Source: Candidatus Omnitrophota bacterium
GTDB taxonomy: Bacteria; Omnitrophota; Gorgyraeia; Gorgyraeales; Gorgyraeaceae
DNA length: 64,000 nt
Assembly: GCA_026387235.1 (NCBI GenBank)
Contig: JAPLMD010000026.1
Location: forward strand, 973-64,972
Direction of reading: 5' to 3'
Positions within the stretch are counted from its first letter, which is position 1. Each line of letters starts with the position of its first letter. The position numbers were made by a program, and so were the translations under genes. Below the pieces are notes generated by a model that saw nothing but the letters and a program-made list of their open reading frames with translations, ran no database searches and was not told the DNA's origin. Positions 3,426-32,401 of this stretch are shown here, piece by piece.

Positions 3426-3432
3426 TCAGGTA

Positions 3433-5902: not shown

Positions 5903-5903
5903 A

Positions 5904-8285: not shown

Positions 8286-8587
8286 CAGACGCTCACTCCT
8301 ATTATATCCTTCAGATAATCTCCGACGCTTCTCCTCTTAGCAGATCCTCCCCTTGAGGGAAGCTCGAGTATAAGAGGCATCTGGTTCTTGTACATAAGAT
8401 TATCCAGTTCCTGCCTTAAAAATAACGCTGCCTTTTCAGTCACCAGAATCACCCCTGCTTCTTCTGTTGCCAGCGCCACCTTTAAAGCCTCCAAGGCATT
8501 GGAACGGCTGGCAACCTCTCTTGTCTCTACGCCGGCCAGCCTGAAACCAAGGCCTGATTCCTTATCAGCTATGCAGAAAAACGTCAT
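8285..8587 (-). CDS. atpF: V-type ATP synthase subunit F
   Basis: 100 aa. GFRLAGVE...EEAGVILVTEKAA is typical of subunit F. Confidence 0.7.
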   Translation of the reverse strand: MTFFCIADKESGLGFRLAGVETREVASRSNALEALKVALATEEAGVILVTEKAALFLRQELDNLMYKNQMPLILELPSRGGSAKRRSVGDYLKDIIGVSV

Positions 8588-8922: not shown

Positions 8923-8925
8923 CTC

Positions 8926-10827: not shown

Positions 10828-11867
10828 ATATTTAACAGGTTATTTGTCTCGTCCCTTTTCCAGCCAAAATTTTTGGCGTATAAAAGAGAAATAATATTTT
10901 TCGTCTCATTTCTCTTCAACATCACATATCCAAGGATCGCGCCTATTGTAAAAGGATATCCGGAAAGGGCTCTCTTGACTTCTTTCAACAAGACCTCATG
11001 AAGGAAATTTTCTATAAGGGACATGTTTTCTTCTATAAGCTCTCTGACTTTGGCGTACGGGCCTAGCGCTACGCTATCCACGATCTTTGTAAGCCCGTCA
11101 GTCGTATAAAGGCTCGCGACGTTCTCTTTATTAATCCTCGCTCCGCCCGGAATCATCCATTCCAGGATATCGCCGGCTGCCAGGCTGTAATACTTCCTCA
11201 TCCTTATGAGCCAGTTTATGTTTTCGGTATCTATCTCTATGCCTATGACCCTTCTAGCTATCTCTTGATCGCGGGGAGAAAGCGATTCCGCGCAGGAAAG
11301 AATCCTCTGGCAATAATCAATATCCAAGCTGGCTTCCAGATAAAAAACAGATCCTTTTTCTTTGAATCTGTCCCGAGCGCGTAAAATAGGTTTTCTGTAA
11401 GGCGTGTCGTCCAGAAGAAGTATTATTTCCTCTATATTGGGAGCGTACATGATTTTTTTATAGTCTATATCAAAACTTATCTTCTCTCCTAAAATAAAAT
11501 CATCGGCGTTAACCGGTGTTTTTTTATTCCATATCCTCAATGCCGTCTTTAACTGTTCAAGCTCATACTTTTCTATAAAAAGGCTCATGAGTTCTTTTTC
11601 TGTTTTTCCCGGAGCGGATCTATATATCCTTCTGTATATACCCAAGTCATTTTTTATGAACAGCTTTTCGATAATCCTGAGATCCGTGATTTCTTTGGGG
11701 ATGCTTTCTATTGCGGCTTTATGATACGGCGATTCCTTTAACAGCTCCATGGCCTTATAAACATCTTCCGCCTCCAGCATCCTGGAAAATAAATCCGGGC
11801 TTATCAGGAATGAGATCATGGCCCTTATCTTGGCGTTGATAAAAGAATACGTGGCGAGTTCTCGCAT
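10821..11867 (-). CDS. atpC: V-type ATP synthase subunit C (d-subunit)
   Basis: 348 aa. N-terminus YSFINAKIRAMISFLIS matches the subunit C/d consensus (Y.Y.NARVRAM...L). Operon context. Confidence 0.7.
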   Translation of the reverse strand: MRELATYSFINAKIRAMISFLISPDLFSRMLEAEDVYKAMELLKESPYHKAAIESIPKEITDLRIIEKLFIKNDLGIYRRIYRSAPGKTEKELMSLFIEKYELEQLKTALRIWNKKTPVNADDFILGEKISFDIDYKKIMYAPNIEEIILLLDDTPYRKPILRARDRFKEKGSVFYLEASLDIDYCQRILSCAESLSPRDQEIARRVIGIEIDTENINWLIRMRKYYSLAAGDILEWMIPGGARINKENVASLYTTDGLTKIVDSVALGPYAKVRELIEENMSLIENFLHEVLLKEVKRALSGYPFTIGAILGYVMLKRNETKNIISLLYAKNFGWKRDETNNLLNIC

Positions 11868-12190: not shown

Positions 12191-12757
12191 TTAGCGGCTC
12201 CCCGGTTTTATTATCTCAACGCCCTTTTTGCATAAAGGGCAATCCTCAGGCTTATAGGCGGGAAAATCAAGCCTTACCAGACTTTTTAATTTTACACCAA
12301 AATCAAGGGTTTTTCCACTTCTATTTACCACGCAGCCCACGCCTATTATCCCGGCGCCTTTTGATCTCACTGCCTCCAATACCTCATTCGTAGAAAGGCC
12401 TGTTGTTATAACATCTTCAACCACAAGGACCCTGTCTTCTTTTTTTAATTCAAAACCTCTCCTTAAGGTCATTTTGCCTTCTACCCGCTCTGTGAATAAA
12501 GATTTTACTCTTAAAGCGCGTCCTGTTTCATAAGAAACTATTATCCCTCCCAGGGCAGGCGCCACTACGCAGGTAGGCAAATCATCTTTAAAATAATCCG
12601 CCAGTTCCCCGCATAATTCTTCAGCTATATCAGGATACTGCAATAAAAGCGCGCACTGAAAATAATTCCCGCTATGAAGCCCGCTCGAAAGCATGAAATG
12701 CCCTTTCAATAAGGCTCCTGTTTCTTCAAATAATTTTAAAATCTCTTGTTCTTTCAA
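12191..12757 (-). CDS. pyrE: Orotate phosphoribosyltransferase. Apparent TTG start with AAGGAG RBS 6 nt upstream.
   Basis: 188 aa. GHF.LSSG.HS.Y and PRPP-binding VLVVEDVITTGLS motifs. Confidence 0.85.
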   Translation of the reverse strand: MKEQEILKLFEETGALLKGHFMLSSGLHSGNYFQCALLLQYPDIAEELCGELADYFKDDLPTCVVAPALGGIIVSYETGRALRVKSLFTERVEGKMTLRRGFELKKEDRVLVVEDVITTGLSTNEVLEAVRSKGAGIIGVGCVVNRSGKTLDFGVKLKSLVRLDFPAYKPEDCPLCKKGVEIIKPGSR

Positions 12758-12768
12758 AAAAACTCCTT

Positions 12769-12824
12769 ACCTTGGTCCACCTGACAGGTGAGCCAAATGG
12801 CTCACCTGTCAGGTGGACCAAGGT
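12769..12824. repeat. Perfect 27-bp-stem palindrome (2-nt loop) between pyrF and pyrE. Copy 1 of a repeated palindromic element.
   Basis: accttggtccacctgacaggtgagcca|atggctcacctgtcaggtggaccaaggt. Every position 12769-12824 pairs with its mirror, as verified by hand. Core GGTCCACCTG(A/C)CAGGTGAGCC recurs at 58386-58436. Confidence 0.8.
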
Positions 12825-12826
12825 TC

Positions 12827-13519
12827 TCAAATTGTTCTAAATGCCTTGACCGGATCTTTGGCCTTTGTAACAGGCCTTCCTATCACAATATAATCCGCGC
12901 CCCGTTCAAACGCTTCTTTGGGAGTCGCTACCCTTTTCTGGTCCCCGGCCTCACTCCCTTCAGGCCTTACGCCAGGCGTAACTATTAAAAAATCTCTTCC
13001 TGTATTTTTTCTTACCGCGATTATTTCCTCCGGGGACGCTACCACGCCGTCTAAACCTGCGTCCCTGGCCAATTTCGCCAGATTCAAAACCTGCTCTTCG
13101 GGCGATTTATTTACTCCGGATCTTTTCAAAGCTTCTCCATCCATGCTGGTAAGGACTGTTACCCCTAAGATCTTCGGCCTTGATATCCCCAGTTTCCCGC
13201 TTTCTTCTTCCGCAGCCTCTACAGCCTTTTTCATCATGCTATCCCCGCCTGACGCGTGCACGTTAAACATAAACACGCCGAACCTGACAGCTGCTTTGCT
13301 GGCGGCATAAACCGTATTCGGGATATCGTGAAATTTCAGGTCCAGAAAAATATCCTTGTCGTATTTTTTGACAAGATCTATCGCTTTCGGCCCGCAGGAA
13401 TAGAATAACTCCATGCCTATTTTAAAAATCTGCGCCTCGGGGCTTAAAATATCCAAAAGCCGCTCTTCTTCTTTAAGGGTATTCACATCCAGCGCTATTA
13501 TAATTCTATCTTTTATCAT
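12827..13519 (-). CDS. pyrF: Orotidine-5'-phosphate decarboxylase
   Basis: 230 aa. IIALD...FKIG...DLKFHDIPNT motifs of OMP decarboxylase. Confidence 0.85.
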   Translation of the reverse strand: MIKDRIIIALDVNTLKEEERLLDILSPEAQIFKIGMELFYSCGPKAIDLVKKYDKDIFLDLKFHDIPNTVYAASKAAVRFGVFMFNVHASGGDSMMKKAVEAAEEESGKLGISRPKILGVTVLTSMDGEALKRSGVNKSPEEQVLNLAKLARDAGLDGVVASPEEIIAVRKNTGRDFLIVTPGVRPEGSEAGDQKRVATPKEAFERGADYIVIGRPVTKAKDPVKAFRTI

Positions 13520-14441
13520 TCAAGCCGCCTACAATGTCTTCGATTTTTTCTATTTTATGCTTCCTTAGATACGCTTCGATACCTTTTACTATTTTCCCGC
13601 ATATACCGGGCTCTACAAAATTAGCAGTGCCTACCTGTATAGCCATAGCGCCTGCCAGCATAAATTCAATAGCGTCATCGCTATTCATTATACCACCTGC
13701 GCCTATAACGGGGATATTAATATTCTTCGAGACTTCATAGACCATTCTCAGGGCTATTGGTTTTATGCATGGCCCGCTCAAACCGCCTGTAATATTGCCG
13801 AGTTTCGGCTTTCTCGCATCTATGTCTATAGCCATTCCCAAAAACGTATTCACCAGGCTTACCGCGTCCGAACCCGCGTTCTCCGCCGCCTCGGCAATCT
13901 CAACTATATCCGTCACATTAGGAGAAAGTTTTGTAATGAGGGCTTTATTCGTTACCTTCCTCACGGCCTTTACAACTTCATACGTTGCTTTAGCATCCTG
14001 CGCTACCAGCCTTTTGCTTTTAAGATTAGGGCACGATATATTCAGCTCTATGCCTCTTATATTCTTTATCTTATCAATCCTTCTGGCAAGAATAAAAAAT
14101 TCGTCTATATTATTCCCGGATATGCTCACTATGATAGGGGCTCCTATTTTAGAGAGATACGGCATTTTTTCCTTTATGAAATCATCTACGCCTTCGTTCT
14201 GAAGCCCTATCGCATTGAGCATCCCGGCTTGGGTCTCGCATATCCTGGGCATAGGATTGCCCTGTTTCGGGTTTAACGTTATGGTCTTCGTAATAATTGC
14301 TCCTATTTCTGCCAAGTTAACCAGTTCTTCGAATTCCTTAGCGTACCCGAACGCGCCTGACGCAGCCATCACAGGATTTTTAAGCCTTATCTTTCCTATC
14401 TTCACTCCCAACATTCCCATTTTTCTTCTCCCGCCATCCAT
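13506..14441 (-). CDS. pyrD: Dihydroorotate dehydrogenase, class 1B catalytic subunit
   Basis: 311 aa. NAIGLQNEG, ELNISCPN and GGI..G.DA motifs of the PyrD TIM barrel. Adjacent to pyrK. Confidence 0.9.
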   Translation of the reverse strand: MDGGRRKMGMLGVKIGKIRLKNPVMAASGAFGYAKEFEELVNLAEIGAIITKTITLNPKQGNPMPRICETQAGMLNAIGLQNEGVDDFIKEKMPYLSKIGAPIIVSISGNNIDEFFILARRIDKIKNIRGIELNISCPNLKSKRLVAQDAKATYEVVKAVRKVTNKALITKLSPNVTDIVEIAEAAENAGSDAVSLVNTFLGMAIDIDARKPKLGNITGGLSGPCIKPIALRMVYEVSKNINIPVIGAGGIMNSDDAIEFMLAGAMAIQVGTANFVEPGICGKIVKGIEAYLRKHKIEKIEDIVGGLNDKR

Positions 14442-14448
14442 TTGAGTT

Positions 14449-15255
14449 TTACCAAATTAACTCGGAGGCGTTAAACACCGGGCCGTCTTTGCAGGCAAGC
14501 TTACTGCCTGATTTCGTTTTGACGACGCACCCGAGGCACGCGCCGATCCCGCAGGCCATCTTTTCCTCTAACGACACCTGGCATTCAAAATTCCTTTCCA
14601 GGCATATATCCGCAATGCATCTGAGCATGCCGTGCGGCCCGCAAACATATACAATAGTTTCAAACTTGCTTTCCGTAGTCTTCAGGATTTTATGGAACAG
14701 CTTCGACACAAAACCCTTGCAGCCATAAGTGCCGTCGTCAGTGGAAACATAAACCTCAGGCGCAGCTTTTTTAAAATCCTTTTCGCATAAAATAAGGCTT
14801 CTTGTTTTCGCGCCTATCAAGACTATTGTTTTTATCTTATTCTTCTTTAGCTCCTCCGCCAGATATACAAGCGGCGCGGCGCCTATGCCGCCGGCAATTA
14901 TAATGGCCCTGGGTTCCAGATTGGAAGTTCCGGGCAGGATAAAACCGTTTCCCAATGGCCCGAGAACATCCACAAATTCTCCGTCTTTTTTCTTAGACAA
15001 AACCTCTGTGCCCTTGCCGACCACCTCATACAGAATCTCTATGCCCCTTTTTACCTTATGTATGCTGAAAGGCCTTCTCAAAAGCGGCTCCGAAGAATCA
15101 CTGCACCTGATCTCCACAAACTGCCCTGGTTTTACAATCCTCGCGATATAAGAGGCGTCGAGATGCATCTTATAATAAGCCGGGCCGACTTTATTATTCG
15201 AGTAGATTTTCGCTTTAATGTCTTTCATGTCAGAATAAATCCAATTGTTTTTCAC
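14449..15255 (-). CDS. pyrK: Dihydroorotate dehydrogenase electron-transfer subunit (FAD / 2Fe-2S)
   Basis: 268 aa. FNR-like FAD/NAD fold with C-terminal Cys cluster (CGPHGML...ACGIGACLGCVV). Confidence 0.85.
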   Translation of the reverse strand: MKNNWIYSDMKDIKAKIYSNNKVGPAYYKMHLDASYIARIVKPGQFVEIRCSDSSEPLLRRPFSIHKVKRGIEILYEVVGKGTEVLSKKKDGEFVDVLGPLGNGFILPGTSNLEPRAIIIAGGIGAAPLVYLAEELKKNKIKTIVLIGAKTRSLILCEKDFKKAAPEVYVSTDDGTYGCKGFVSKLFHKILKTTESKFETIVYVCGPHGMLRCIADICLERNFECQVSLEEKMACGIGACLGCVVKTKSGSKLACKDGPVFNASELIW

Positions 15256-16462
15256 CTGCGGAATCTTTTTCTTTTAATATCTCTATTTCGCCGTATTCCC
15301 CGTCAAAACCAGGCAGAATATTTACATTTCCGTTTCTAACGTTTACGATCGCCTTTGCTATTTTTATCGGCAATTCTTTCAAGAGTTTATCCTCGCTGAC
15401 TTCCATCAATACCTCAAGCTCTGTGCCAAGCCGCGGTATTATAGCGCGGTACTCCGCGCTAACCGCTTTAGAAGCATCGCCTACGCCCAGCGTGTCAGCT
15501 ATTATCTCTGCAAGCGGTATCATTCTTTTATAAGGGATGCTGTTCTCCGGGATAAAACCTTCCGGCCTGTCCGCAAGTTCTAAGACCCTGTTCATAACTC
15601 CTATTGTAAGAGGTTTTCCGCACTTAGGGCAAATATTTTTATTCTTTTTTGTTTCGCCGGGGCTGAGCCTGACATTGCACAAGCGATGGCCGTCGTAGTG
15701 ATACTTGCCCTCTTCAGGAAAAAATTCAATGGTAGATAAAAATTTCTTTTTATCTTTTTTCTTCAATGCGTCCAGTATAGCTTTATAGCTCATCTCAGTA
15801 TCAAATACATTCGCTTCTCTCCCTATTTTCTGAGGGCTGTGAGAATCAGAATTTGATAAGAGGGCGAATCTGTCCAGCTTGCTCCATTGCCAATTCATGC
15901 CGGGGTCTGAAGAAAGCCCTGTCTCCAAGGCGTAAATGTCTTTGGCGTATTCTTCAAAACATTCTTCTATTGAATCAAAACCTGACTTAGAGCCAAAAAG
16001 CGAGAACCAGGGGGTCCATATATGCCCCGGCACCAGAAAGACATCTTTACTGATGCCGAATAAAATCTCTGCCAGGTCTTTAGCGTCAATGCCTATGATA
16101 GGCCTCCCGTCATACGCAATATTCCCATAACCCGAAAGAGTAGAATTTATTTTATCGGCAATATCAAAACTCGGCACAAAAATAACATTATGAATTTTTC
16201 TGACCTTGCCGTTTTTCGAATAGATACTGGATACCTCTCCCGTGAGCATAAAATTCACGCCGTTATATTCAAATAAACCGTTTCCGGAATCTTTCAGGGT
16301 GTTTTTCAATTCTTCAAGCCACAGGTGGTGCGTGAAATCACCTGTGCCCAGCAAAGATATGCCTTTAAGCTTCGCGTATTCCGAAAGCGTCTTTATGTTC
16401 ATGTCAGGGCTTGTGGCGCGGCTGTATTTGGAATGTATGTGGAAATCAGCTATAAACTTCAT
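15230..16462 (-). CDS. PHP-domain protein with C-terminal zinc ribbon, endonuclease Q-like (TIGR00375-type)
   Basis: 410 aa. N-terminal PHP metal site ADFHIHSKYSRATS...GTGDFTHH. C-terminal CPKCGKPLTIGV zinc-finger-like element. Architecture matches the EndoQ family. Confidence 0.5.
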   Translation of the reverse strand: MKFIADFHIHSKYSRATSPDMNIKTLSEYAKLKGISLLGTGDFTHHLWLEELKNTLKDSGNGLFEYNGVNFMLTGEVSSIYSKNGKVRKIHNVIFVPSFDIADKINSTLSGYGNIAYDGRPIIGIDAKDLAEILFGISKDVFLVPGHIWTPWFSLFGSKSGFDSIEECFEEYAKDIYALETGLSSDPGMNWQWSKLDRFALLSNSDSHSPQKIGREANVFDTEMSYKAILDALKKKDKKKFLSTIEFFPEEGKYHYDGHRLCNVRLSPGETKKNKNICPKCGKPLTIGVMNRVLELADRPEGFIPENSIPYKRMIPLAEIIADTLGVGDASKAVSAEYRAIIPRLGTELEVLMEVSEDKLLKELPIKIAKAIVNVRNGNVNILPGFDGEYGEIEILKEKDSAGEKQLDLF

Positions 16463-17733
16463 GCCTTGTATATGACCTTTCCTTTATATATCGTATATTC
16501 TACAACGCCTTTTAATTTCCTGCCGATGAAGGCTGAATTTTTAGACCTGGATACAAAATCTTGTTTTTTCACCAGCCATTCTTTATCAGGAGAAATAATA
16601 ACTATATCAGCATCCTTACCCGGCCCTAAAGTTCCTTTATCTATACCCAGAACATTCGCGGGATTAAGAGAAATCTTTTTTACAAGCTCGCTCCAGGTTA
16701 ATATCCTGCGGTCTATAAGTTCGGTGATGCTTACCGCAAGCTCTGTTTCCAAACCTATGCTTCCGAATTCCGCATACTCGAATTCTATATCTTTTTCATT
16801 CTCAGTGTGAGGCGCGTGGTCAGACGCAATAACATCTATTGTGCCGTCTTTCAACCCCTCTCTTATCGCGAGAACATCGTCTTCTGCCCTTAAGGGCGGG
16901 TTGACTTTCATATTTGTATTATAGCCCAGCAGATCTTTTTCATTCAAAGTAAAATAATGCGGGGCGGTTTCCGCAGTCACTTTCACGCCTTTTTTCTTCG
17001 CCTTTCTTATTATCTCCACTGATTCGCCGCAGCTTACGTGGGCAATATGGACGCCGGCGCCTGATTTTTCCGCAAGCATAATATCTCTGGCCACCCTTTT
17101 ATATTCGGATTCTTTTGAAATACCCCTCAGGCCGAGCTTTGTGGACGTAAAACCTAAATTAACCACGCCTTTACCTGAAAGCGACTTATCCTCTGAATGG
17201 CATATTACAGGAATCTTTTCTTTTTTCGCCTTTTCAAACGCCCTTAACATTAACTCGTCATTGTCAACTGACGCGCCGTCGTCTGAAATAGCAACTATCC
17301 CTTCTTTTTTTAATGCCTGGATGTCGGTTAACTCCCGGCCGGCCCTTCCGATTGTAATTGCGCCGCATATAAATACATCCACGTTCGCAGTATTTTTAAC
17401 AATATCTTTCAGCGTTTTGATAATCTCTATCGAGTCAAGGCTGGGTAAAGTGTTCGGCATAGCCAGAACGCTGGTAACGCCTCCTTTACCTGCGGCTTTT
17501 GTGCCGCTACTGACAGTCTCCTTGTCTTCTCTGCCAGGCTCCCTCAAATGCACGTGCATGTCAACAATACCTGGCATGACTATTTTACCTGCGGCATCGA
17601 TTAAAGTATCAGCTTTAACGTCTATGCCCCTGGCCGCCTTGGATATCTTCCCGTCTTCTACGAGAATGTCCATGACCTCTTCTATCTTACCGGCCGGGTC
17701 TATCACGCGTCCATTTTTAATGAGTAATTTCAT
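16459..17733 (-). CDS. pyrC: Dihydroorotase
   Basis: 424 aa. VDMHVHLREPG metal-binding motif. Amidohydrolase fold. Confidence 0.9.
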   Translation of the reverse strand: MKLLIKNGRVIDPAGKIEEVMDILVEDGKISKAARGIDVKADTLIDAAGKIVMPGIVDMHVHLREPGREDKETVSSGTKAAGKGGVTSVLAMPNTLPSLDSIEIIKTLKDIVKNTANVDVFICGAITIGRAGRELTDIQALKKEGIVAISDDGASVDNDELMLRAFEKAKKEKIPVICHSEDKSLSGKGVVNLGFTSTKLGLRGISKESEYKRVARDIMLAEKSGAGVHIAHVSCGESVEIIRKAKKKGVKVTAETAPHYFTLNEKDLLGYNTNMKVNPPLRAEDDVLAIREGLKDGTIDVIASDHAPHTENEKDIEFEYAEFGSIGLETELAVSITELIDRRILTWSELVKKISLNPANVLGIDKGTLGPGKDADIVIISPDKEWLVKKQDFVSRSKNSAFIGRKLKGVVEYTIYKGKVIYKA

Positions 17734-18685
17734 CTTTTTTATCCTTATCCCGCGCCTGAGACACCCAGAATAAAACCGCCATCCTGACAGCTATGCCGTT
17801 AGTAACCTGCTCCAATATAACGGAATTCACGCCGTCCGCAACCTCGCTTGATATTTCAACGCCTCTATTTATCGGCCCGGGGTGCATTACAATAATGCCC
17901 TTCTTGGCCTTTTTCAGCCTCTCTTCTGTGATGCCGAATTTCTTAAAATATTCCAACTGGCTCGGAAACGCCTTCATGTCATCCCGCTCGAACTGCATCC
18001 TTAAAACATTTATGGCGTCTGAGCCGCTAAGCGCCTCATCTATATCGTTAGTAATTTTAACGTTCATATTTTCTATGCCCGGAGGGATCAGAATGCCGGG
18101 CGCGCAGACAGTCACATTGGCCCCGAACTTGGTCAATCCCCATATATTTGAACGCGCGACGCGCGAATGCGCAATGTCGCCCACTATGCTCACGTTCAGG
18201 CCTTCCAGCCTGCCTGTTTTCTTCCTCAAGGTAAACATGTCCAAAAGCGCCTGCGTCGGGTGCTCGTGCCAGCCGTCGCCCGCGTTTATTACGCTTATGC
18301 TTACATTCCGCGCCAGCATGTCAGCAGCGCCGGAACAGTTATGCCTCACCACGATAATATCTGCCTTCAGCGCCTCTATGTTTTTGCCTGTATCATTAAG
18401 CGTTTCTCCTTTTTTTACGCTGGAAGACTCTACTGCAATGTTTATGACATCAGCTGACAGTCTCTTGGCAGCCACTTCAAAGGATACCCTGGTCCTGGTG
18501 GATGGCTCATAAAAAAGATTGACTACTGTTTTACCGCGCAGGGCAGGGACTTTCTTGATCTTTCTATCCAGGATTTCCCTGAAAGATTCAGCCGTGTCTA
18601 AAAGCAGCTCGATGTCCTCTTTTGAAAGATATTCCAACCCCAGGAGGTCCTTATGAACCCATTTTGCTGTTTTCTTCTTTGTCAT
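17717..18685 (-). CDS. pyrB: Aspartate carbamoyltransferase catalytic subunit
   Basis: 322 aa. STRTR carbamoyl-phosphate-binding motif. HP.Q and VMHPGP motifs. Confidence 0.9.
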
Positions 18686-19221
18686 TCCCCGGTTTCCTCT
18701 ATGCCGACGCTATCCTCATTATCCGTCTCCTGCAATTTCACCTGCACAAGCTCTTTCTGCGAAGTAGGGATATTTTTCCCCACGTAATCAGCCCGGATAG
18801 GAAGCTCGCGATGGCCCCTGTCTATAAGGACCGCGAGCTGTATTGTCTTAGGCCTTCCAAAATCTATAAGGGCGTCCAACGCGCACCTGATAGTGCGGCC
18901 CGTATATAAAACATCATCCACAAGCACTATATTTTTATTCTCTATGTCAAAGTCTATCTCGGTATTATGAATCACGGGCTGTTCGGATATGGCGCTCAGA
19001 TCGTCCCTGTAAAAGGTTATATCCAAAGCTCCCACGTCTAATTTCGTGCCGTATAGATTATTTATCACTTTTGCGATGCGCTCCGCCAGGACATACCCCC
19101 TGGTTCTTATCCCTACTATGGCAAGGTCCTTGACGCCTTTATTGTTTTCTATAATCTCATGGCTTATCCTTGTAATCGAACGCTCTATTTCTTCTTTTGT
19201 GAAAACTTGTTTTAGAGGCAT
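18682..19221 (-). CDS. pyrR: Bifunctional pyr operon regulator / uracil phosphoribosyltransferase PyrR
   Basis: 179 aa. PRT-type motif [19 protein letters not shown] start with AGGAGA RBS. First gene of the pyr operon. Confidence 0.9.
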
Positions 19222-19365: not shown

Positions 19366-19397
19366 AAATTATACCACCTATTTTTAGAATGTCAAGG
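19366..19397 (-). promoter_or_regulatory. Sigma70-type promoter of the pyr operon
   Basis: Minus strand reads TTGACA-(16 nt)-TGgTATAAT. The -35 is the reverse complement of 19390-19395 and the extended -10 is the reverse complement of 19368-19376. It lies about 15 nt upstream of the PyrR binding loop. The -35 overlaps the stop codon of the upstream radical SAM gene. Confidence 0.6.
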
Positions 19398-20843
19398 TTT
19401 TCCTAAAGAGATAAAAAACTTGTTTTTTATTATCACTGCAAATCCTTCAAATAACATCTTTATCTCGGGCAAGCAGGGATTTTTCATTAGGTGCATGATC
19501 CTGTGCATAAAGAATCTAGGATTGAAATAGACTTTCCTATATGCCTCTTTTATTGATTTCTCCAGAATAGGTAAATCCAATTGGTCTTTTAATATCTTTC
19601 CTTTCTTATTAAAATATTCGTCGTAATCGTATGAAAGTAATGTCTTATTTCTTTTCGCCTCATCGAATAACTGGCTGCCGGGCAGAGGGGTGAATATATT
19701 AAACGTCGTGTAGGTCGGGTTTAATTTTAGAGCAAAATTAATAGTTTTTTTAATCTCATCGACGGTTTCGCCCGGCATCCCTATCATGAATGATGCCTTG
19801 GCCGCAATTCCTATTTTCTTTGTGGAGTTAATTGCTTCCTCTGCCTGTTCTAAGGTCGTATATTTTTTTGCCTGCGTGTGCCACTTTTGTGTCCCGAAGT
19901 CTACTCCATATTTTATATTGCGGCATCCTGCTTTCCTCATAGCCAGCAACATCTCTTTGTCTACCGTATCCACCCTCGCATAGCAATTCCATGTAATCTT
20001 AATATCCTCGTGCAGCAATTTTTCGCAAAATTCCATTATCCTTTCTTTTGGCGCCGTAAGCACGTCGTCATAAAAACGGAAGTCGTGTATTCCAAAGTCG
20101 CGTATGCATGATTTTATTTCTTCAATAACGTTTGCGATTGAGCGGAATTTTACTCTATTTTTGAAACGACTGCCGGCTCTGCCGCAATACGTGCACTGGT
20201 ACGGACAACCTCTTGAAGAAAGGATGCCGGTTGACGGCAGTTGATAATAGTTACTTGGAATGGGGATATACCTACCCACATCTACTAAATGCCGCGCCGG
20301 AAAAGGCAAACTATCCAAATCTTCGATGGGTTCATGCAGGGGGTTTTGTATCACGGCGCCGGCCTCGCGCCAGACAAGGCCCCTGATATCAGGAACATCT
20401 ATTCCTATCACAAGGTCAGTAAACGACCTCTCTCCCTCTCCGTAAATTAAATAATCAAAGTTTTTGAACATCTCCAGGGTTTCTACCGGCAGGGCCGATG
20501 CGTGGGCTCCTCCGACAATTATCTTGGCCTTACTGTATTGCCGGATCAATCCTGCTATCCGATTTGCAGTTATAATGGAGTTAGTGTAGGCAGTCATACC
20601 GATAAAGTCAAAATTAGTATGCTGCAATGCATCTACTAAACGCTGTTCTGCGTCATTATGCAAGGCCATATCAATAAAAGAAACGCGCATCCCTTGCTTT
20701 TCTAAAAAAGAGGCGATATATAACAATCCCAGCTCTAATTCGTGACCACCGTAGTCTTTTCTAAAACTCCCTCCAAAATCTATGGATAAGCGCGCGGGAG
20801 GGCGGACAAGTAATATATTCTTAGTCATAGTCTCTGGATCCAA
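19392..20843 (-). CDS. B12-binding-domain radical SAM protein (class B radical SAM family)
   Basis: 483 aa. N-terminal Rossmann-like cobalamin-binding-type domain. CxxxCxxC motif SSRGCPYQCTYCGRAGSR. Confidence 0.8.
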   Translation of the reverse strand: MDPETMTKNILLVRPPARLSIDFGGSFRKDYGGHELELGLLYIASFLEKQGMRVSFIDMALHNDAEQRLVDALQHTNFDFIGMTAYTNSIITANRIAGLIRQYSKAKIIVGGAHASALPVETLEMFKNFDYLIYGEGERSFTDLVIGIDVPDIRGLVWREAGAVIQNPLHEPIEDLDSLPFPARHLVDVGRYIPIPSNYYQLPSTGILSSRGCPYQCTYCGRAGSRFKNRVKFRSIANVIEEIKSCIRDFGIHDFRFYDDVLTAPKERIMEFCEKLLHEDIKITWNCYARVDTVDKEMLLAMRKAGCRNIKYGVDFGTQKWHTQAKKYTTLEQAEEAINSTKKIGIAAKASFMIGMPGETVDEIKKTINFALKLNPTYTTFNIFTPLPGSQLFDEAKRNKTLLSYDYDEYFNKKGKILKDQLDLPILEKSIKEAYRKVYFNPRFFMHRIMHLMKNPCLPEIKMLFEGFAVIIKNKFFISLGKP

Positions 20844-23073
20844 TATCCTTTAATACGGCATTTGCTATGTTTTCAGCCAACAATTGATTGCCCTTCCTCG
20901 TGCAGTGACCAAAATCACTCCCAAAGTGATCAGTGAAATATTCGTCATAATTACCCTTCTCTAAGGCTGCTTTAAACACAGCTTCATTATCTACGAAGAT
21001 AATACCTTCTTTATCTTCAAAAATATTCTTTAGCGGCTCAAGCTTACGGCAAGGATACTGCACTACCACCAGTCTTATTTTTTTCTGCTCTAGGATTTCT
21101 CTAAGCTTTTGATAGTTATGAATTGTGTTCGCATAAGGCGATAACTTATCTGCCGTTTCCTCGTATCGTTTCTCACTCGACCCGGACTCTAATCTTTCTT
21201 GTGGTTGCGCATTGACTCTGTAATAGTCTCCCAATCCAAGATAGGTGCTGTAATTTCGCAGGCTTTTCTCAAGAGCCCCCTGTAACAATTCTTCCGCATC
21301 ATGCAATTTTCCCTGTTCTATATAAAGCCGGGCCAATTTAGCACATATCTCGTGATTCCCTGGGTTTATTTCTAAACCTTTTGTCCAGACCTGCTGGGCT
21401 TCTTGAAATCTTGTCGCTTCCTCATACAAGCTTCCTAATCTATAGTATGCACATGACTGCCTTGGGTTTATTGATATAGCCTTTACAAACATCTCTTCTG
21501 CTTCCCGGGATTTCCCTTTCGCTTCATAGCAACTACCGAGTCCAAGGCATAGCTCGTAATGTCTTGGATTCATTTTGAGCGCCTTTCGAAACATTTCTAC
21601 TGCTTCCTGGAATGCTGCTCCCCATCTATAATACAACGCAAATTGCTTATATATTTCATAGTGCCCCGGGTTTTGCTTAAGCGCTTTCCTAAGGATTCTT
21701 CTTGCCTCTAACCATCTTCCCATATTGATATAAAACTCACCCAGTGAAAAATACGCTTCATGACTCTTTGGGTTAATTGCAATAGCTCTTTTCAATATAT
21801 TTTCTGCGTCCTTGCTCCTTCCCGTAATTCTATAATGGCGCGCCAATTCATGATACGTATTAATCTTCTGAGGGTATAGTACGATAGCCCGCTGTAACAG
21901 CTCTTCTGCTTCTTTATACCTTCCTGCATCATGATAACCCGATCCTATTGCAACGCATGCTTCATCACTCTCCGGTTTTACAGCGATGAGCTTGTCGTAC
22001 ATCTCTTTTGCTTCCCGGGATTCTCCTCTTTTTACATAATAGAGCCCCAAGGTACAAATTGCTTTGTAATTTTCCGGATTAAGCTCAATAGCCCTCTGAA
22101 GTATATCCTCTGCTTTTTTGTACCTTCCTACTTTCATATAGTACTGACCACATAAAACATAAGCTGCATCGTTTGCGGGAGATATCTCTATGGTCTTTTG
22201 GATCAGCTCTTCTATATCCTGGAGGCGCCCCTCATTGAGATAATATCCACCCAATTCGTAATACGCATCAGTGTTTTGAGGGTTTATTGCAACAGCCTTT
22301 TGGAATAGTTCTTCTGCTTCTTTAAATCTCGCTGTCTCTGCATAGCACTTTCCTAATTCGAAATAGGCCGTATCATCTCCGGCGTCAGCCATGATAGCTT
22401 TTTTAAACATTTCTTCTGCTTCCAGGAATCTTGCTGAATCCAGATAATAACTGCCTAATTCAAGATAGGCTTTGTTATCGCCAGGGTTTATTGCAATGGC
22501 CTTTTGCAGCTTCTCCTCTTCTTTCTTAAACCTTACCGCCATAGAATGCGTTGTTAAAAAGAGGCCTTTTTCTCGCAGTTCTCCAAGTTTATTGGCGCTA
22601 TGCAGCCATAGAAGGTTCACAAGTTTATAGACTCTATATCCCTTCAAAAAAGATAATATTCGAGGAAAAGGCATACTCTCATAAGGAAGAATATCTGAGT
22701 CATTTATCCCCATCATCGTAATTACCATATCAGGATGGTATTTATTCAACTGATCGGGTAATCGTCTTAAAATATCTCTTGTGGTGATTCCGCTGACTCC
22801 TCCATTGATAACAACGAACTTAACCCCAATATTATTCTTATTCAGTATCTGCTGAAGCTGAGAAGGATAGGAGCCCTTTTTTGTGTGCGCTGTCGTAGAC
22901 TCACCTAAACAAAGAATACGATATGCCTTTCCTTCGCGAATAACCTTTTCATTTCTGTATTGCTGCAAAGATATGAGTGCCCAGCCCCCCAGTCGCAATC
23001 CTAGCTCAAGGATAATCACACATACAACTAACCCAATAAGTATTAAAATTACTTTTTCTCTAAGTCTCAGCAT
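20821..23073 (-). CDS. Membrane-anchored SGNH/GDSL-type hydrolase split by a ~450-aa TPR-repeat array
   Basis: 750 aa. N-terminal TM helix. SGNH block I CLGESTT, blocks II/III GGVSGITT / MMGINDSD. About 12 TPR repeats follow. The catalytic block V DFGHCT sits at the extreme C-terminus. Confidence 0.65.
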   Translation of the reverse strand: MLRLREKVILILIGLVVCVIILELGLRLGGWALISLQQYRNEKVIREGKAYRILCLGESTTAHTKKGSYPSQLQQILNKNNIGVKFVVINGGVSGITTRDILRRLPDQLNKYHPDMVITMMGINDSDILPYESMPFPRILSFLKGYRVYKLVNLLWLHSANKLGELREKGLFLTTHSMAVRFKKEEEKLQKAIAINPGDNKAYLELGSYYLDSARFLEAEEMFKKAIMADAGDDTAYFELGKCYAETARFKEAEELFQKAVAINPQNTDAYYELGGYYLNEGRLQDIEELIQKTIEISPANDAAYVLCGQYYMKVGRYKKAEDILQRAIELNPENYKAICTLGLYYVKRGESREAKEMYDKLIAVKPESDEACVAIGSGYHDAGRYKEAEELLQRAIVLYPQKINTYHELARHYRITGRSKDAENILKRAIAINPKSHEAYFSLGEFYINMGRWLEARRILRKALKQNPGHYEIYKQFALYYRWGAAFQEAVEMFRKALKMNPRHYELCLGLGSCYEAKGKSREAEEMFVKAISINPRQSCAYYRLGSLYEEATRFQEAQQVWTKGLEINPGNHEICAKLARLYIEQGKLHDAEELLQGALEKSLRNYSTYLGLGDYYRVNAQPQERLESGSSEKRYEETADKLSPYANTIHNYQKLREILEQKKIRLVVVQYPCRKLEPLKNIFEDKEGIIFVDNEAVFKAALEKGNYDEYFTDHFGSDFGHCTRKGNQLLAENIANAVLKDIGSRDYD

Positions 23074-23156: not shown

Positions 23157-24272
23157 TCACTCATGCGGCCAAATTTCATCCCAGTGTTGGCTTAGGTACT
23201 CGGCAATTGCTTCATTCCCCTGAGGAGTTAAATGTATTTGATTAAACAGGTTAACAAGATTCTGGCCGATGCGCTTATTTAAATCTATATATGGTACGCG
23301 CTCTTCTAACGCAACTTCTTCTAGAATTTTTCCGGCGTCGCTCATTAATTGCGGCAGCCTCTCCGCAGGCACCTTCACTAGCCTGTAAGCAATCCGCCTT
23401 TTCTCCTCGCTAGAATTTCTAGAATGCACCAGGGTAAGCGGGTTTATAAGCAAAACCTGCACGCCATTTTTTTTGGCCACGGTAACGATATTCCTGATAT
23501 TCCTTTTATAGACTAATTTTCCGTAATCTGTATCGCCCCCTTCGTTTGGCCTTAAGGTTTTCTCAACGACAGAGGCCATTTCTAGTTCTTCGGGAAAAAA
23601 TTCACGCAGATGGCGCCGCAAGGGTTTCATTGCTAACCAGAGATACGAATGGTTAGCCAGTGTTGCGAGTGCATTATGAGTCTCGAATTGAGAATATATT
23701 CTTTGCCATGATTGTCCATAAGAGGCCTTTCTGTTCAGATATGGCCAGGCCTTAATATCATTCCACGAATGATAAACAATAATCGCATCGGGATTGTAAT
23801 CTAATATCCGAGTGGACAAGTTTATGAGAGAATGGAACGTGGTGTATCCTGACACGCCGGCATTAACTATCTCAATATCACGGTCGGGGTATTTCGCTTG
23901 TAACTTCTTCTCAAGGATTGCACAAAAGCCAATATTATCATTCCCCGATCTGTTGAATACAGACGAACCACCCAATACAAAAACCCTGAAAGGGCGCGCG
24001 TCATCCGGATCGAATTCTTTCCCGCGGAAACCCAAAGAGTTTATATGAAGCTTTATCTTGCCGCAATTGATTTCTACGTTTGGCCGGAGGGTGTACTCTA
24101 GGAAGGGATGCCTTTCATACAAAAGCAGGTCTGGGCTGGTCCAGGCAAGAATATTCTTATGGCTTAAAAAAAAGAAGGCCCTCAATGCCAGCTCACACAA
24201 CAACAAGGTCAGAAATAATGCTACGCAAAACTTGATACATATCTTCCTGTTCAGCATATACTTAATATCCAT
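23157..24272 (-). CDS. SGNH/GDSL-like hydrolase (probable glycan O-acyl esterase/transferase), N-terminal TM anchor
   Basis: 371 aa. FVLGGSSV (block I), NAGVSGYTT (II), YHSWNDI (III), IHLTPQGNEAIAEY (V-like). Confidence 0.55.
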   Translation of the reverse strand: MDIKYMLNRKICIKFCVALFLTLLLCELALRAFFFLSHKNILAWTSPDLLLYERHPFLEYTLRPNVEINCGKIKLHINSLGFRGKEFDPDDARPFRVFVLGGSSVFNRSGNDNIGFCAILEKKLQAKYPDRDIEIVNAGVSGYTTFHSLINLSTRILDYNPDAIIVYHSWNDIKAWPYLNRKASYGQSWQRIYSQFETHNALATLANHSYLWLAMKPLRRHLREFFPEELEMASVVEKTLRPNEGGDTDYGKLVYKRNIRNIVTVAKKNGVQVLLINPLTLVHSRNSSEEKRRIAYRLVKVPAERLPQLMSDAGKILEEVALEERVPYIDLNKRIGQNLVNLFNQIHLTPQGNEAIAEYLSQHWDEIWPHE

Positions 24273-25249: not shown

Positions 25250-26866
25250 TTATTCCCTCGGGCTGAAACGGTATATATTAATGCCCCTTACTTCCTTAGC
25301 AAGTGTAAGTTTATAATGGGTATTTAACTTGTCGATAAACACCCGTTTGCCATAGGCAATACCTGCCCACCGACTTATGAGCACCCAAATCTGCCGATGT
25401 GATTTTATAATATCTTCACGTTGCATAACTTTTTTATCAAAATCGCTCACAATATAGTCTAAGTTATGCATCATGTTCAAACCAGAACCGGGATTCCGGT
25501 ACTCGTCTTTTCCTGTGTCGCGTTCGCTACCAAGAGTTATAATAAAATGATCTTTGTACAGGAACGATTCCTGCCAGCGGTCGGCTTCAAATTTACCAAA
25601 AATGAGTATATCCTTTAAAGCCGCCTGGTCAGCGTCGCCTAAATAATACATAAACGAAACTACTTCTTTTGTTGTAGCTATAATGAAAATATCATCGACT
25701 TTTAACTCATGCCCCTTGACGAAATGCACGGCCTTTTCCCAATCGACATTGATTTTGGCGCTGTACATCGTCCTTAAAGGGACGATGTTTAACAATAGGA
25801 TAGCGACAAGAATGACCCCAGAAATCAATTGGCGCCTATAGTAAATCCCTCTGGCAACGATCAGATAGAATGCGGGTAAGAAAAATAAGAAATTCTTGAT
25901 AAGATACACAGGGGAAAAAAGATAAGAAAATACTAAACTCAAGGCAATAGGCAGGGCTAACCATATAACCACAAATGCTTGACGACTATTAGGTTCCTGA
26001 CTCATAATGATAAAGAGGCCCCGTACGAAAAAAATCCCAAACATCAGCATTAATGCGCCAGCAATTACCGGCGGGAAAGATGTATTTTCTAAAGAACTAA
26101 GGCCGTAGGCCGGTCCCCCGTAAGTAAATGTGCTGAATGTGTCTATTAAACTCTGCATAGCAGGCGGCCGTACCCACCATAGTATTGCCTTAAAATTATT
26201 TCTCCCCGCAAACAATATCCATACCCATAATCCTAAAAAAAGTACTAAGGGTAATTGAAAGGAGAGCCATTGCTTTAATTGCTCGATCTTGATCGAGCGA
26301 CGCGCGTAGATGACATAAAAAAATTGCACGAGGACAGCAGAGATACCGAATGGATGCGTGCAGACGGCCAAGATATTGAGCAATAAGTTGGCGCCCAGCA
26401 TACATGGCTTCTTCTTTTCAAAAAAATCAATAAAGAAAATAAAGGAAAGAAGAACCAAAATAGTAAGCAGGCCGTAGTGTTTGACCTGCTGAGAATGATA
26501 AATGTCAAAACATGAAATTGATAAAAGAAATGATGCGATCAGCGCTGAGCCGGTATTAAACAACCTTTTACCCAATTTATAGGTCAAAAAAATGGCCAAG
26601 ATCCCAAGCATGACTGACAATAGCCGAGTGGCAAAAATCCCCATCCCAAAAGCCGCTATCCAAACCTTCAATAAAATAATATACGGTATCTTATAATTAG
26701 CGACTGAATGAAGCATAAAATCAAACCCTTTGAGCGCATGCGCAAAGAAGCCTATTTCATCATACCAGAGCGGTTTTGCAGTAAGCCCATATAATCGCAG
26801 TATCGCGCCCAGGAGCATGACCGAAAAAAGGATAACAGGAACCCTGATTTTCAATAATTTAGCCAT
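25250..26866 (-). CDS. GT-C fold membrane glycosyltransferase, ArnT/PMT (GT39/GT83)-like
   Basis: 538 aa. Polytopic. N-terminal region LYGLTAKPLWYDEIGFFAHAL resembles the ArnT/PMT loop-1 Asp/Glu motif. Confidence 0.6.
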   Translation of the reverse strand: MAKLLKIRVPVILFSVMLLGAILRLYGLTAKPLWYDEIGFFAHALKGFDFMLHSVANYKIPYIILLKVWIAAFGMGIFATRLLSVMLGILAIFLTYKLGKRLFNTGSALIASFLLSISCFDIYHSQQVKHYGLLTILVLLSFIFFIDFFEKKKPCMLGANLLLNILAVCTHPFGISAVLVQFFYVIYARRSIKIEQLKQWLSFQLPLVLFLGLWVWILFAGRNNFKAILWWVRPPAMQSLIDTFSTFTYGGPAYGLSSLENTSFPPVIAGALMLMFGIFFVRGLFIIMSQEPNSRQAFVVIWLALPIALSLVFSYLFSPVYLIKNFLFFLPAFYLIVARGIYYRRQLISGVILVAILLLNIVPLRTMYSAKINVDWEKAVHFVKGHELKVDDIFIIATTKEVVSFMYYLGDADQAALKDILIFGKFEADRWQESFLYKDHFIITLGSERDTGKDEYRNPGSGLNMMHNLDYIVSDFDKKVMQREDIIKSHRQIWVLISRWAGIAYGKRVFIDKLNTHYKLTLAKEVRGINIYRFSPRE

Positions 26867-27942
26867 AGCATTCTTGGTACAAGTGAAAGTAGCGCTTTCA
26901 AATTAAAAAATGTGGCGATTTGCAAGCTACACTCATAGGTACAACAGCATCTGGTGTCTTTGATTTCTTTTCTGAGCGACTCAGCATCCCGAGAAAACCA
27001 TAGCTTGCGAAAATCATAGCCGTAGGCCCTTATGCTGCCAAAGCCTCGCCCCATTATTTCACAAGGGTAAACGTTTAATGAACTATCGATTATGCACAAC
27101 AATCTTCCTGCGTAGCAGGGAAATAGATACCGGTTTTGATTTGTGATTTGCGCAATCATTTCTGAGATCTTGGATTTGTAGGCGGAGTAAAATCTATAAT
27201 ATAGATTCGTCTGTTTATTTTTTTTAGCCAATAAAAAAGAGAGGACTCTTCTATATAATTTAAGATAATTCACTGCATCTACTTCTTTAATTTTTGGGTC
27301 TCTGACGTTGCCTCTTGCGAAGCTTAGGCTAATCATATCGGGGTTAAGTTTTTCTTCTATGTAATCCAGCGTTTCAGGTAAATCTTCTTGGTTAAGAGCG
27401 GAATAGGTAATGATTATTCCAACTTTGAAATAGGGATTTGTCTTTTTTAATTTCACCAGCCCATGGTAGGTATCAACAGCTTTTAAGAACGCCCCTCGCG
27501 CGCCTCTTATCGCATCATGTTTTTCTTCCAGGCCGTCGAGCGATATTTTTACGGCGAGATCGACGTTCCTGATATTTCTTAATATGTTCTCGGTAGTCCT
27601 CAATATCCGTTCTGTAAAAAATCCATTTGTGGGGATACTTACGTTTGAGACAGAGTTGTTCTTATTGAAAATTTTTATTATCTCCGGGATGTCGTCCCTC
27701 AAAAAAGGCTCTCCTCCGGTCAGCGTCAAGAAACTAAAGCGCCCTAATGACTTTGAAAACCTGTCTATTTCTTCCAGAGTAGCTTCATTAGTTTCTTTGT
27801 TGAGATTGGCCCAATAAAAACAATGCGCGCATGCTAAATTACACTTATCGGTTATAAAAAATATAACTTGTTCGGGCATACGCCATGCGCATATAGGAAA
27901 TAAAATTTTACCAGCCCATCTAATTTTTTCGCGAAATCTCAT
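26851..27942 (-). CDS. Radical SAM protein with C-terminal SPASM/twitch-like Cys cluster
   Basis: 363 aa. ITDKCNLACAHCFY (CxxxCxxC). C-terminal ...YPCEIMGRG...RCCCTYECSLQ. Confidence 0.7.
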   Translation of the reverse strand: MRFREKIRWAGKILFPICAWRMPEQVIFFITDKCNLACAHCFYWANLNKETNEATLEEIDRFSKSLGRFSFLTLTGGEPFLRDDIPEIIKIFNKNNSVSNVSIPTNGFFTERILRTTENILRNIRNVDLAVKISLDGLEEKHDAIRGARGAFLKAVDTYHGLVKLKKTNPYFKVGIIITYSALNQEDLPETLDYIEEKLNPDMISLSFARGNVRDPKIKEVDAVNYLKLYRRVLSFLLAKKNKQTNLYYRFYSAYKSKISEMIAQITNQNRYLFPCYAGRLLCIIDSSLNVYPCEIMGRGFGSIRAYGYDFRKLWFSRDAESLRKEIKDTRCCCTYECSLQIATFFNLKALLSLVPRMLWLNY

Positions 27943-31012: not shown

Positions 31013-32401
31013 TTAATCGGCAACTGAATACAATAAAACCATGAAGGCCTCTTGCAAACTTCTAATTTTATTCGGCAGTATTTTCCATATTCGCCACATC
31101 TGGCGCGGCCGGAGGTAAAATTCCCTGAATAACTTCGCATGCATCCTTTTTAATTCCCGGTCGGAAAGCGATGAGGCATTCGTGGAAAACTTATGATAAT
31201 CGTGGGCACTGAATTTCTTTAATTTAACATTCTCTCTGTCAAGCTCATTAAATATCTCCGTCTTCGGCTGTGGAATAAGATAAAAAAAGTCTGCTATGTG
31301 AAATCCTGCATCTTTTGCAAATCTAAGAGTCTGGAGCACCTCTTCCTTTGTTTCACCGGGGAATCCCAGCATAAAATAGCCGCAGGTAACTATGCCCTGT
31401 TTGATGGTTTGAGCGATGATGTGTCTGGCCTTATCAAGATCAAGGTTCTTCTTGACAATCTTCTGGATCCGTGGCGAGGCTGACTCAATGGCATAAAAGA
31501 TCACGCGTGCCCCCGCCTGCTTTAGCTTTACGATAAGCTCTTCATCCATCCTGTCGACGCGAAGGCCGTTGGGAAAAGAAAGGGCTATCTTGATGCCGCG
31601 GCGGATTATCTCATCGCAGATGCGCTTGGCCCGAGGAAGGTCGAAATTAAAGCAGTCATCGATAACCTCTATCTCCTGAACCCCATAGTTTTTGATCAAG
31701 GCCTCAATCTCTTCAATGACATTCTCAACACTCCTGAACCTGATCTTTTTGCCAAAGATATTATGGCAGTAGGTGCATTGGTAGGGACAACCCCGGGAGG
31801 TAAATAAAGACGCGATCCTGTTAGAGGTGGGAATGGGGTTCTGTGAATGGTTGCGAATGTCCTTAAAATATCCCTCCATGTTGATAATATCCCATGCAGG
31901 AAAAGGAATGACGTCAAGGTCTTCGATCGCCGACTGCACAGGGTTGACTACACAGGTCCCGTTGTTTTTAAAGGCCATGCCATCGATTTCCGAGAAATCT
32001 TTTCCTTCTTGTAAAGCGTTGATAAGCCTGGCGGCTGTCCTTTCCCCCTCCCCGATGACCACGAAATCTACGTTCTGGTCTTTCATGATGTGTTCGGGGC
32101 TGGAGGTAGCGTACGGGCCGCCTACGATTACTTTGCAGTTAGCGTCAATCTCCTTGGCTAACCTGGCAAGCCTATGGACATGGGCAGACTCCATGCTCAT
32201 GCCGGAAATGCCGACCACATCGGGGGAAAGAGCTTTTATGCGCCGGGAAACGGCCTTATCGCTGAGACGCTCATGCCGGGCGTCAATAATGGTTATATCG
32301 TGATATCCCTGGCTTCTGAGATATGAGGCGAGGTAGAGGGGACCGAGCGGAATAAGGTGTTTGACCTCAGGTGAATTCGCTATGATGAAAGCTATTTTCA
32401 T
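31013..32401 (-). CDS. B12-binding-domain radical SAM protein (tandem duplicate 1)
   Basis: 462 aa. TSRGCPYQCTYCHNIFGKK motif. About 80% identical to 32422-33813. Confidence 0.8.
   Translation of the reverse strand: MKIAFIIANSPEVKHLIPLGPLYLASYLRSQGYHDITIIDARHERLSDKAVSRRIKALSPDVVGISGMSMESAHVHRLARLAKEIDANCKVIVGGPYATSSPEHIMKDQNVDFVVIGEGERTAARLINALQEGKDFSEIDGMAFKNNGTCVVNPVQSAIEDLDVIPFPAWDIINMEGYFKDIRNHSQNPIPTSNRIASLFTSRGCPYQCTYCHNIFGKKIRFRSVENVIEEIEALIKNYGVQEIEVIDDCFNFDLPRAKRICDEIIRRGIKIALSFPNGLRVDRMDEELIVKLKQAGARVIFYAIESASPRIQKIVKKNLDLDKARHIIAQTIKQGIVTCGYFMLGFPGETKEEVLQTLRFAKDAGFHIADFFYLIPQPKTEIFNELDRENVKLKKFSAHDYHKFSTNASSLSDRELKRMHAKLFREFYLRPRQMWRIWKILPNKIRSLQEAFMVLLYSVAD

Follow-up and report, generated by a model that had tools for sequence, protein, structure and literature searches.

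The locus described here raises the question of whether the catalytic blocks of an SGNH hydrolase can be separated by a long array of tetratricopeptide repeats (TPRs) and still belong to one enzyme. It lies in a 64,000-nucleotide stretch of contig JAPLMD010000026.1 from a Candidatus Omnitrophota bacterium (hereafter the window) and comprises two paralogous genes, par1 (20821-23073) and par2 (45454-47598), both on the minus strand, as are all features of these genes and of the surrounding gene cluster given below. An earlier note on this DNA had placed both open reading frames (ORFs) exactly, and its description proves accurate in nearly every detail. We find that par1 is a complete gene for a TPR-split SGNH hydrolase of 750 amino acids, and that its layout defines a large, unnamed and uncharacterised family, mainly from Omnitrophota, Elusimicrobia and related uncultured lineages. 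Our reading as a whole, to which we give a probability of about 60%, is that par1 would be a membrane-anchored, TPR-split SGNH enzyme of this family with a role in envelope-glycan ester chemistry, and par2 a copy lost recently.

The assignment of par1 follows from its ORF, from Pfam matches and from two orthologues, P0001 and L001, with 71-79% identity. All the motifs quoted for it in the earlier note are present: CLGESTT (residues 55-61), GGVSGITT (91-98), MMGINDSD (120-127) and DFGHCT (720-725). Lipase_GDSL_2 (PF13472) covers residues 55-127 only, that is profile positions 1-76 of 178 (42.4 bits versus a cutoff of 32.9), and the rest of the protein matches mostly TPR models. An AlphaFold2 (AF2) model was built on an alignment of 111 family members, which also underlies the conservation figures given below, and has a mean predicted local distance difference test score (pLDDT) of 85.5. 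Its elements follow in the order: N-terminal helix (4-45); strands β1 (51-57), β2 (86-90) and β3 (116-120), all with pLDDT >90; two amphipathic helices (138-167); 25 TPR helices (179-601); a linker (602-645); a helix (648-663); β4 (667-671) and β5 (691-694); the DxxH loop (720-723); and a terminal helix (726-745).

On the DNA, the gene begins with a transmembrane helix (residues 8-26; 22996-23052) that is hydrophobic in 111/111 members, with an invariant E23 and near-invariant R27, G29 and G30 just after the helix. Next comes the SGNH N-half (residues 50-167; 22573-22926), which holds β1-β3, Ser59 of block I, Gly92 of block II and Asn124 of block III, as indicated by the PF13472 match, the AF2 model and conservation, and which ends with the two amphipathic helices. 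The nested TPR array (residues 179-601; 21271-22539) is recognized by TPR Pfam models, AF2 helices and Foldseek. It is followed by a low-confidence return linker (residues 602-645; 21139-21270; pLDDT <50 at 605-607, 609-613 and 616-644) and by the SGNH C-half (residues 646-750; 20824-21138; pLDDT 85-97), with its leading helix, β4, β5, block V and the terminal helix. Block V itself, Asp720-x-x-His723, occupies nucleotides 20905-20916. The hydrolase domain is split after block III and the two amphipathic helices, and before the helix leading into β4.

The DxxH motif at the C-terminus had been proposed to be SGNH block V, and several lines of evidence bear this out. A chimera in which the TPRs were cut out (residues 1-170 joined to 632-750) matches PF00657 (Lipase_GDSL) end to end, over positions 1-208 of 208, with an E-value of 9.7e-9. 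When a profile built from the chimeras of 16 family members was compared with the PDB, the best sequence matches were the SGNH esterases 7DDY, 9OTV, 7C23 and Axe2, along with carboxylesterases. In the match to 7DDY, the family motif GGDFGHCTxKGNRLLAENIA aligns with trDrvHlndiGNrfvAdkm within residues 197-222 of 230, which is block V in the right order. A colinear but weak block V alignment was also obtained with an uninserted SGNH protein encoded next to par1 (23157-24272). Ser59 is conserved in 100% of the aligned members, Gly92 in 98% (109/111), Asn124 in 96% (107/111) and Gly122 in all 111. His723 is likewise found in 111/111, and position 720 is Asp in 87%, or Asp or Glu in 95% (105/111). 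Block I reads LGES59TT, with the Ser in 111/111 and Glu in place of Asp in 108/111. In short, par1 has block I, the oxyanion-hole residues of blocks II and III, and block V of the SGNH/GDSL superfamily. From the model and profile matches, we expect the halves to come together as a single five-stranded SGNH domain with Ser59, Gly92, Asn124, Asp720 and His723.

Three cysteines lie beside the active-site elements of par1: Cys55, Cys670 and Cys724 (nucleotides ~22909-22911, 21064-21066 and 20902-20904). Cys55, in β1 and four residues before Ser59, is invariant; Cys670, in β4, and Cys724, right after His723, are near-invariant. They may serve in a disulfide, in redox chemistry or in packing.

The insert of par1 contains twelve 34-residue repeats plus a capping helix in the AF2 model, in agreement with the earlier count of about 12. 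Our own repeat hidden Markov model (HMM) finds 13 units, and the 34-residue period runs from residue 182 to 589. Scores well over the cutoffs of TPR_1, TPR_2, TPR_8, TPR_19 and further models place these repeats in the TPR superfamily, and a Foldseek search of the full model against the PDB returned the TPR superhelices of OGT and SPINDLY on top (E-value 1e-14). The Foldseek search was uninformative on the SGNH part, the top 50 matches listed being TPR-type or other solenoid proteins (OGT, SPINDLY, APC/C). In inserted domains the two ends usually lie together, unlike those of a TPR solenoid, and a conserved insert of 4-13 TPRs in an SGNH domain is therefore a structural puzzle. Linker length correlates weakly with insert length (rho 0.29) and with repeat count (0.17), and we do not rely on it.

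The split layout, in which the protein opens with the N-half and closes with the C-half, is found in 120/120 best homologues, and the insert among the 111 aligned members ranges from 196 to 519 residues with 4-13 detected TPRs (median 7). The 111-residue C-half alone retrieves 1,918 cluster representatives (50% identity; E <= 1e-10), and in the top 150 matches it nearly always lies at the extreme C-terminus of a protein of 380-790 amino acids. A scan with one genome per species gave 493 loci, often with paralogues in tandem and mostly in Candidatus Omnitrophota and Elusimicrobia, with other hosts among metagenome-assembled genomes (MAGs) labelled Margulisiibacteriota, Firestonebacteria, Spirochaetes, Planctomycetes and Patescibacteria. 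Of the 79 loci that were fetched, 32 carry 2-5 copies. These loci hold 126 family ORFs with an N-half, and 108 of them have both halves in one ORF; the others are explained by contig ends, by uninserted SGNH neighbours or by simple split genes (three cases). The earlier note had called a TPR insertion inside an esterase fold unusual. The design is indeed odd, but it is the rule in a large conserved family. Its members are prone to tandem duplication, to changes in repeat number and to gene conversion.

In the three split cases (L049, L055 and L063, all MAG loci), the N-half and TPRs form one ORF and the C-half the next. Frameshifts or sequencing errors account for these cases, from which a background rate of broken copies of ~3/115 can be roughly estimated. 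Natural uninserted members were sought among C-half matches of ~280-350 amino acids, and those checked that begin in the N-half or TPRs proved to be N-terminally truncated fragments. One exception, P0242 (261 amino acids), has its C-half preceded by a segment like a GNAT acetyltransferase instead of the N-half and TPRs; it is either a real fusion or a chimeric contig.

In databases these proteins are named "tetratricopeptide repeat protein", apart from one JGI entry, "PilF/lysophospholipase L1-like esterase". Neither Pfam nor NCBIfam has a model for its full length. A literature search found no description of a TPR-split SGNH domain; in the Lipocone preprint, SGNH and Omnitrophota come up, but in contexts that have no bearing on it. 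About 2,000 clusters labelled only as TPR proteins could be re-annotated as probable membrane-anchored esterases.

What par1 might do can be approached from its topology and its genomic setting. The segment before the N-terminal helix has on average 3.6 Lys and Arg residues in the family and the segment after it 1.9. Under the positive-inside rule, this suggests an N-in, C-out orientation, with the enzyme and the TPRs outside the cytoplasmic membrane. The gene closes a co-directional 36-kb cluster (~19.4-55.9 kb; 19392-55886) encoding GT2 transferases, several PMT_2-like polytopic proteins (one of them at 25250-26866), a UDP-galactopyranose mutase (Glf), a DegT aminotransferase, GlmS, an epimerase and a GHL10 hydrolase. 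On this basis, par1 would be a single-pass protein whose extracytoplasmic GDSL-type serine hydrolase domain is split by a superhelix of ~12 TPRs. The enzyme would most likely act on acyl or acetyl esters of a surface glycan or its lipid-linked precursor, removing or possibly transferring them, and the TPR array would dock it either to the polymer or to partner proteins, for instance the GT-C-like transferases encoded nearby. An esterase of glycans or lipids is favoured because the hydrolase blocks are complete and the PDB matches are esterase-like. Judged from sequence, par1 is probably a periplasm-facing esterase for envelope glycan with its TPR array as a scaffold; an acyltransferase role is possible. 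Little is known of the cell envelope in Omnitrophota and Elusimicrobia, and par1 is a new candidate there for an enzyme that modifies glycans.

Among characterised systems, TviD and the AlgK-AlgX pair come nearest. TviD, the O-acetyltransferase for the Vi antigen in Salmonella Typhi, is the product of a surface-polysaccharide locus, and its TPRs serve in membrane association and in binding the partner glycosyltransferase TviE (PMC8760489). Like par1, it combines an SGNH-fold domain and a long TPR region (>60% of TviD) in one polypeptide. However, the TPRs of TviD are appended after a complete SGNH domain whereas those of par1 are nested, and TviD has an atypical Cys-His site without clear blocks II and III whereas the nucleophile of par1 is Ser. 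In addition, par1 has an N-terminal transmembrane helix, and none is described for TviD. No sequence homology between par1 and TviD was detected; by analogy par1 may work like TviD, yet with its nested TPRs and Ser it falls outside the TviD family. AlgX is likewise a periplasmic SGNH-fold enzyme that modifies a polysaccharide and is attached to a TPR scaffold, but AlgX and AlgK are two separate proteins, and AlgX belongs to the ALGX/DHHW branch, with another order of catalytic residues and a carbohydrate-binding module.

The canonical SGNH/GDSL esterases 7DDY, Axe2 (3W7V) and TesA/TAP (1IVN) share with par1 the four blocks, the catalytic residues and the order of secondary structure. They are contiguous domains of ~180-230 residues, whereas par1 has an insert of ~480 residues between block III and β4, as well as a membrane anchor. 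OGT and SPINDLY also join a long TPR superhelix to a catalytic domain, but theirs is of the unrelated GT-B fold, the TPRs are N-terminal, and both are eukaryotic cytoplasmic or nuclear proteins.

A related protein in the window is the adjacent uninserted one (23157-24272), a membrane-anchored SGNH protein of 371 amino acids without TPRs, in which PF13472 covers residues 102-355. It shares with par1 the SGNH blocks, an ELxLR motif in the N-terminal helix and a helical insert at the same site, ~76 extra residues after block III. The chimera HMM of the family matches it significantly in the N-half only (E-value 1.9e-9). Its score with NCBIfam NF047475 (LA_2490 family) is 19 bits, far below the cutoff of 325. 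Uninserted SGNH proteins adjoin family members in about 4-5/79 loci. Residues 23-30 of par1, at the end of the helix (LLExGLRLGG), resemble the ELxLR of this neighbour, and the conserved helix-end motif suggests that the membrane helix does more than anchor.

The two paralogues are 53% identical in amino acid sequence over ~700 residues. The earlier note had reported stretches of more than 200 bp of near-identical DNA and taken them as recent gene conversion. One such tract exists: par1 22265-22470 and par2 46757-46962 are identical at 196/206 positions (95%), against a background of ~65%. A second, older tract at 22600-22750, with approximate boundaries, is only ~150 bp long and 84-89% identical. 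The closest genome, an Omnitrophota MAG from a marine glass biofilm, holds orthologues of both genes, and we compared all four sequences in sliding windows. The 206-bp tract is 91-99% identical among all four. At ~22600-22750 par1 is 84-89% identical to par2 and the par2 orthologue but 58-80% to its own orthologue, and at ~22160-22300 the par1 orthologue shares 82-92% with the par2 type but 62-76% with par1. From this mosaic pattern, conversion has occurred repeatedly and in both lineages, so that recent conversion was correctly recognized and is moreover recurrent.

par2 encodes 714 amino acids with intact blocks I-III but without β5 and block V, as seen in alignments to par1 and to its orthologue in the same MAG (L002:5980-8319). 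The latter encodes 779 amino acids with a par2-type N-terminus, follows the same upstream 626-amino-acid gene and keeps an intact C-half (...GIIFVDNENTFREALKQGNYNEYFNDRFAGDFGHCTRRGNRLLAETIANAIIQAGY). The two are 88% identical in nucleotides apart from two deletions in par2. One is a frameshifting loss of 110 nt, not the ~120 nt estimated before, that takes out β5 through block V; its junction lies between 45518 and 45517 (45510-45525). As an alignment of par1 and par2 shows, homology resumes behind it in another frame, and the protein ends, as quoted earlier, in ...GVQSIIGRKHSRCNNSSWALNR. An out-of-frame remnant of the SGNH terminal helix persists at 45462-45517; it would read RLLAENIADAIIQAGH* and matches the C-terminus RLLAETIANAIIQAGY of the L002 orthologue. 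The other deletion, absent from the earlier note, removes 93 nt (91 + 2) in frame from the last TPRs (junction 45751-45770, from the alignment to L002). A second relative, P0128, keeps both segments. Since L002 and P0128 are intact, the deletions are derived in the lineage of the window. par2 thus lacks the DxxH of block V expected of an SGNH hydrolase; as encoded it is no working member of the superfamily and, on its sequence, catalytically dead through the loss of β5 and the Asp/His block. Slippage at the 110-nt deletion is not claimed: GAAGG stands at both borders in par1, but in par2 an extra CGT remains, and the second GAAGG is missing from the orthologue.

Several results count against the interpretation proposed here. 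Taken alone, the block V alignments to 7DDY and to the uninserted neighbour are weak; the C-half by itself gives no significant Pfam match, and hhalign aligned the chimera profile with the neighbour in the N-half only. That the halves pack together is deduced from the order of secondary-structure elements, high pLDDT values and matches to profiles, not from a measured Ser-His distance. The ends of the solenoid are far apart, which is awkward for a nested insert, and the return linker has ~22 residues in most members. Neighbourhoods are heterogeneous, with no partner in more than ~12-20% of loci. Finally, no acyl-donor gene (MBOAT/AT3) was found in the window, where two large proteins have no Pfam match. 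That the C-half alone escapes Pfam could mean that the last 100 residues are a separate domain merely resembling block V, next to a degenerate SGNH fragment. This is highly improbable and already largely refuted: the chimera covers PF00657 in full, the order β4-β5-DxxH-helix is that of SGNH domains, His723 is invariant, and the C-half without N-half and TPRs was met only in fragments. It is conceivable, although doubtful, that the family consists of O-acyl- or O-acetyltransferases that modify an exported glycan like PatB, OatA, AlgX or TviD. SGNH-fold transferases exist, TviD joins SGNH with TPRs, AlgX works in alginate secretion bound to the TPR protein AlgK (PMC9734138), and MBOAT occurs at 3/68 neighbour positions of family genes. 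But all four canonical hydrolase blocks are intact in par1, esterases (7DDY, Axe2, carboxylesterases) head the PDB sequence matches, the window yielded no MBOAT/AT3 gene, and the C-half does not match Pfam ALGX (PF16822) significantly (E-value 0.13; 12.4 bits versus a cutoff of 26.5) and so falls outside that family. Improbable, too, is that the superhelix selects protein substrates as in OGT, in line with the earlier suggestion that it tethers substrate proteins; par1 would then remove acyl groups from proteins or lipoproteins. In structure, the TPR part comes nearest to OGT and SPINDLY, and peptides are the usual TPR ligands, but any long near-consensus array matches OGT, a repeat number varying from 4 to 13 argues against a fixed peptide-binding lumen, and the genomic context is one of glycan biosynthesis. 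A glycan-directed esterase remains our preferred role for par1. That the nesting itself is functional is rather unlikely: the superhelix might be wound around the SGNH active site or control access to it, or it might span the periplasm as an arm or ruler of adjustable length, the 4-13 repeats tuning the reach to glycan or partner. If true, enzyme and repeat scaffold would here be coupled in a new way, one peculiar to Omnitrophota, Elusimicrobia and lineages like them.

For par2, the earlier note had left a choice between a pseudogenising lesion and a non-catalytic TPR scaffold. The derived state of the deletion makes the lesion the better option. Measured against their orthologues, par2 and par1 have dN/dS ratios of 0.38 and 0.42, and this absence of relaxation marks the lesion as young. 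No par2-like form occurs among the 126 family ORFs of the 79 loci, where block V is lost only through contig ends or simple frameshifts; together with a young, derived lesion, this favours a recent pseudogene over a scaffold. Retention of par2 as a membrane-anchored scaffold, neofunctionalised after the loss of block V, has a slim chance. Its 714-codon frame is open, its translational coupling to the upstream 626-amino-acid gene is kept, and dN/dS is 0.38; but that ratio mostly records the time before the lesion, the form is unique among the family genes of the 79 loci, and with a core strand (β5) deleted and the terminal helix frameshifted the SGNH domain should misfold. A further point against our reading is that the deletion could be an assembly or population variant. 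In that case the true par2 would be intact and catalytic, which we regard as unlikely though not negligible. The closest relatives of the window are MAGs, suggesting an assembly from an uncultured organism. Exact look-ups found neither protein on record elsewhere and so gave no independent support for the deletion. In addition, paralogues with near-identical tracts can mislead assemblers, the ORF is otherwise open, and dN/dS is no higher than for par1. However, a clean internal loss of 110 nt with collinear flanks is atypical of assemblers, the junction lies outside the 95% tract, where the paralogues are 77-88% identical, and the 93-nt deletion is a second, independent one. Most likely, par2 is a young pseudogene. 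The pair offers a small, clear-cut case in which mosaic gene conversion preceded the recent inactivation of one gene; the lesion as such is ordinary, and the interest lies in the nested solenoid.

No conserved partner gene emerged from BLAST of the locus ORFs against the window proteins and from Pfam on 68 immediate neighbours of family genes elsewhere, which showed weak enrichment only: radical SAM at 8/68, MBOAT and GDSL at 3/68 each, and ~14 polytopic membrane proteins. In the window and in the related MAG, par2 is translationally coupled to the gene for a 626-amino-acid PMT_2-like polytopic membrane protein (47595-49475); the stop of that gene and the start of par2 overlap by 4 nt. Gene order on the other side of par2 (45426-45460) differs: a 784-amino-acid gene and a radical-SAM gene follow par2 in the window and lie upstream of the 626-amino-acid gene in the L002 MAG, with the breakpoint <=~30 bp from the par2 stop. 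Three weakly PMT_2-like proteins, of 784 (43072-45426), 626 (47595-49475) and 813 (37067-39508) amino acids, have C-terminal soluble repeats of ~34 residues with the motif Y-[RW]-P-Y-[VL]-Y-x-G-[LI]-G and no Pfam match there. The cluster also contains nine radical-SAM genes, an unusual density for a polysaccharide locus. Six are B12-binding (19392-20843, 31013-32401, 32422-33813, 35676-37070, 40620-42044 and 50727-52214), and the others lie at 26851-27942, 39424-40608 (MiaB-like) and 42069-43142.

The window further carries, on the minus strand, a V/A-type ATPase operon (520-11867) with two A/B-type catalytic subunit genes (520-2253 and 5904-7667), subunit I and subunit C/AC39, followed by a pyrimidine biosynthesis operon (12191-19221). 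A 772-amino-acid membrane protein with a spermidine-synthase-like domain (55955-58273) is encoded by the only long plus-strand gene of the window, and a Memo-AMMECR1 fusion protein of 489 amino acids is encoded at 58437-59906.

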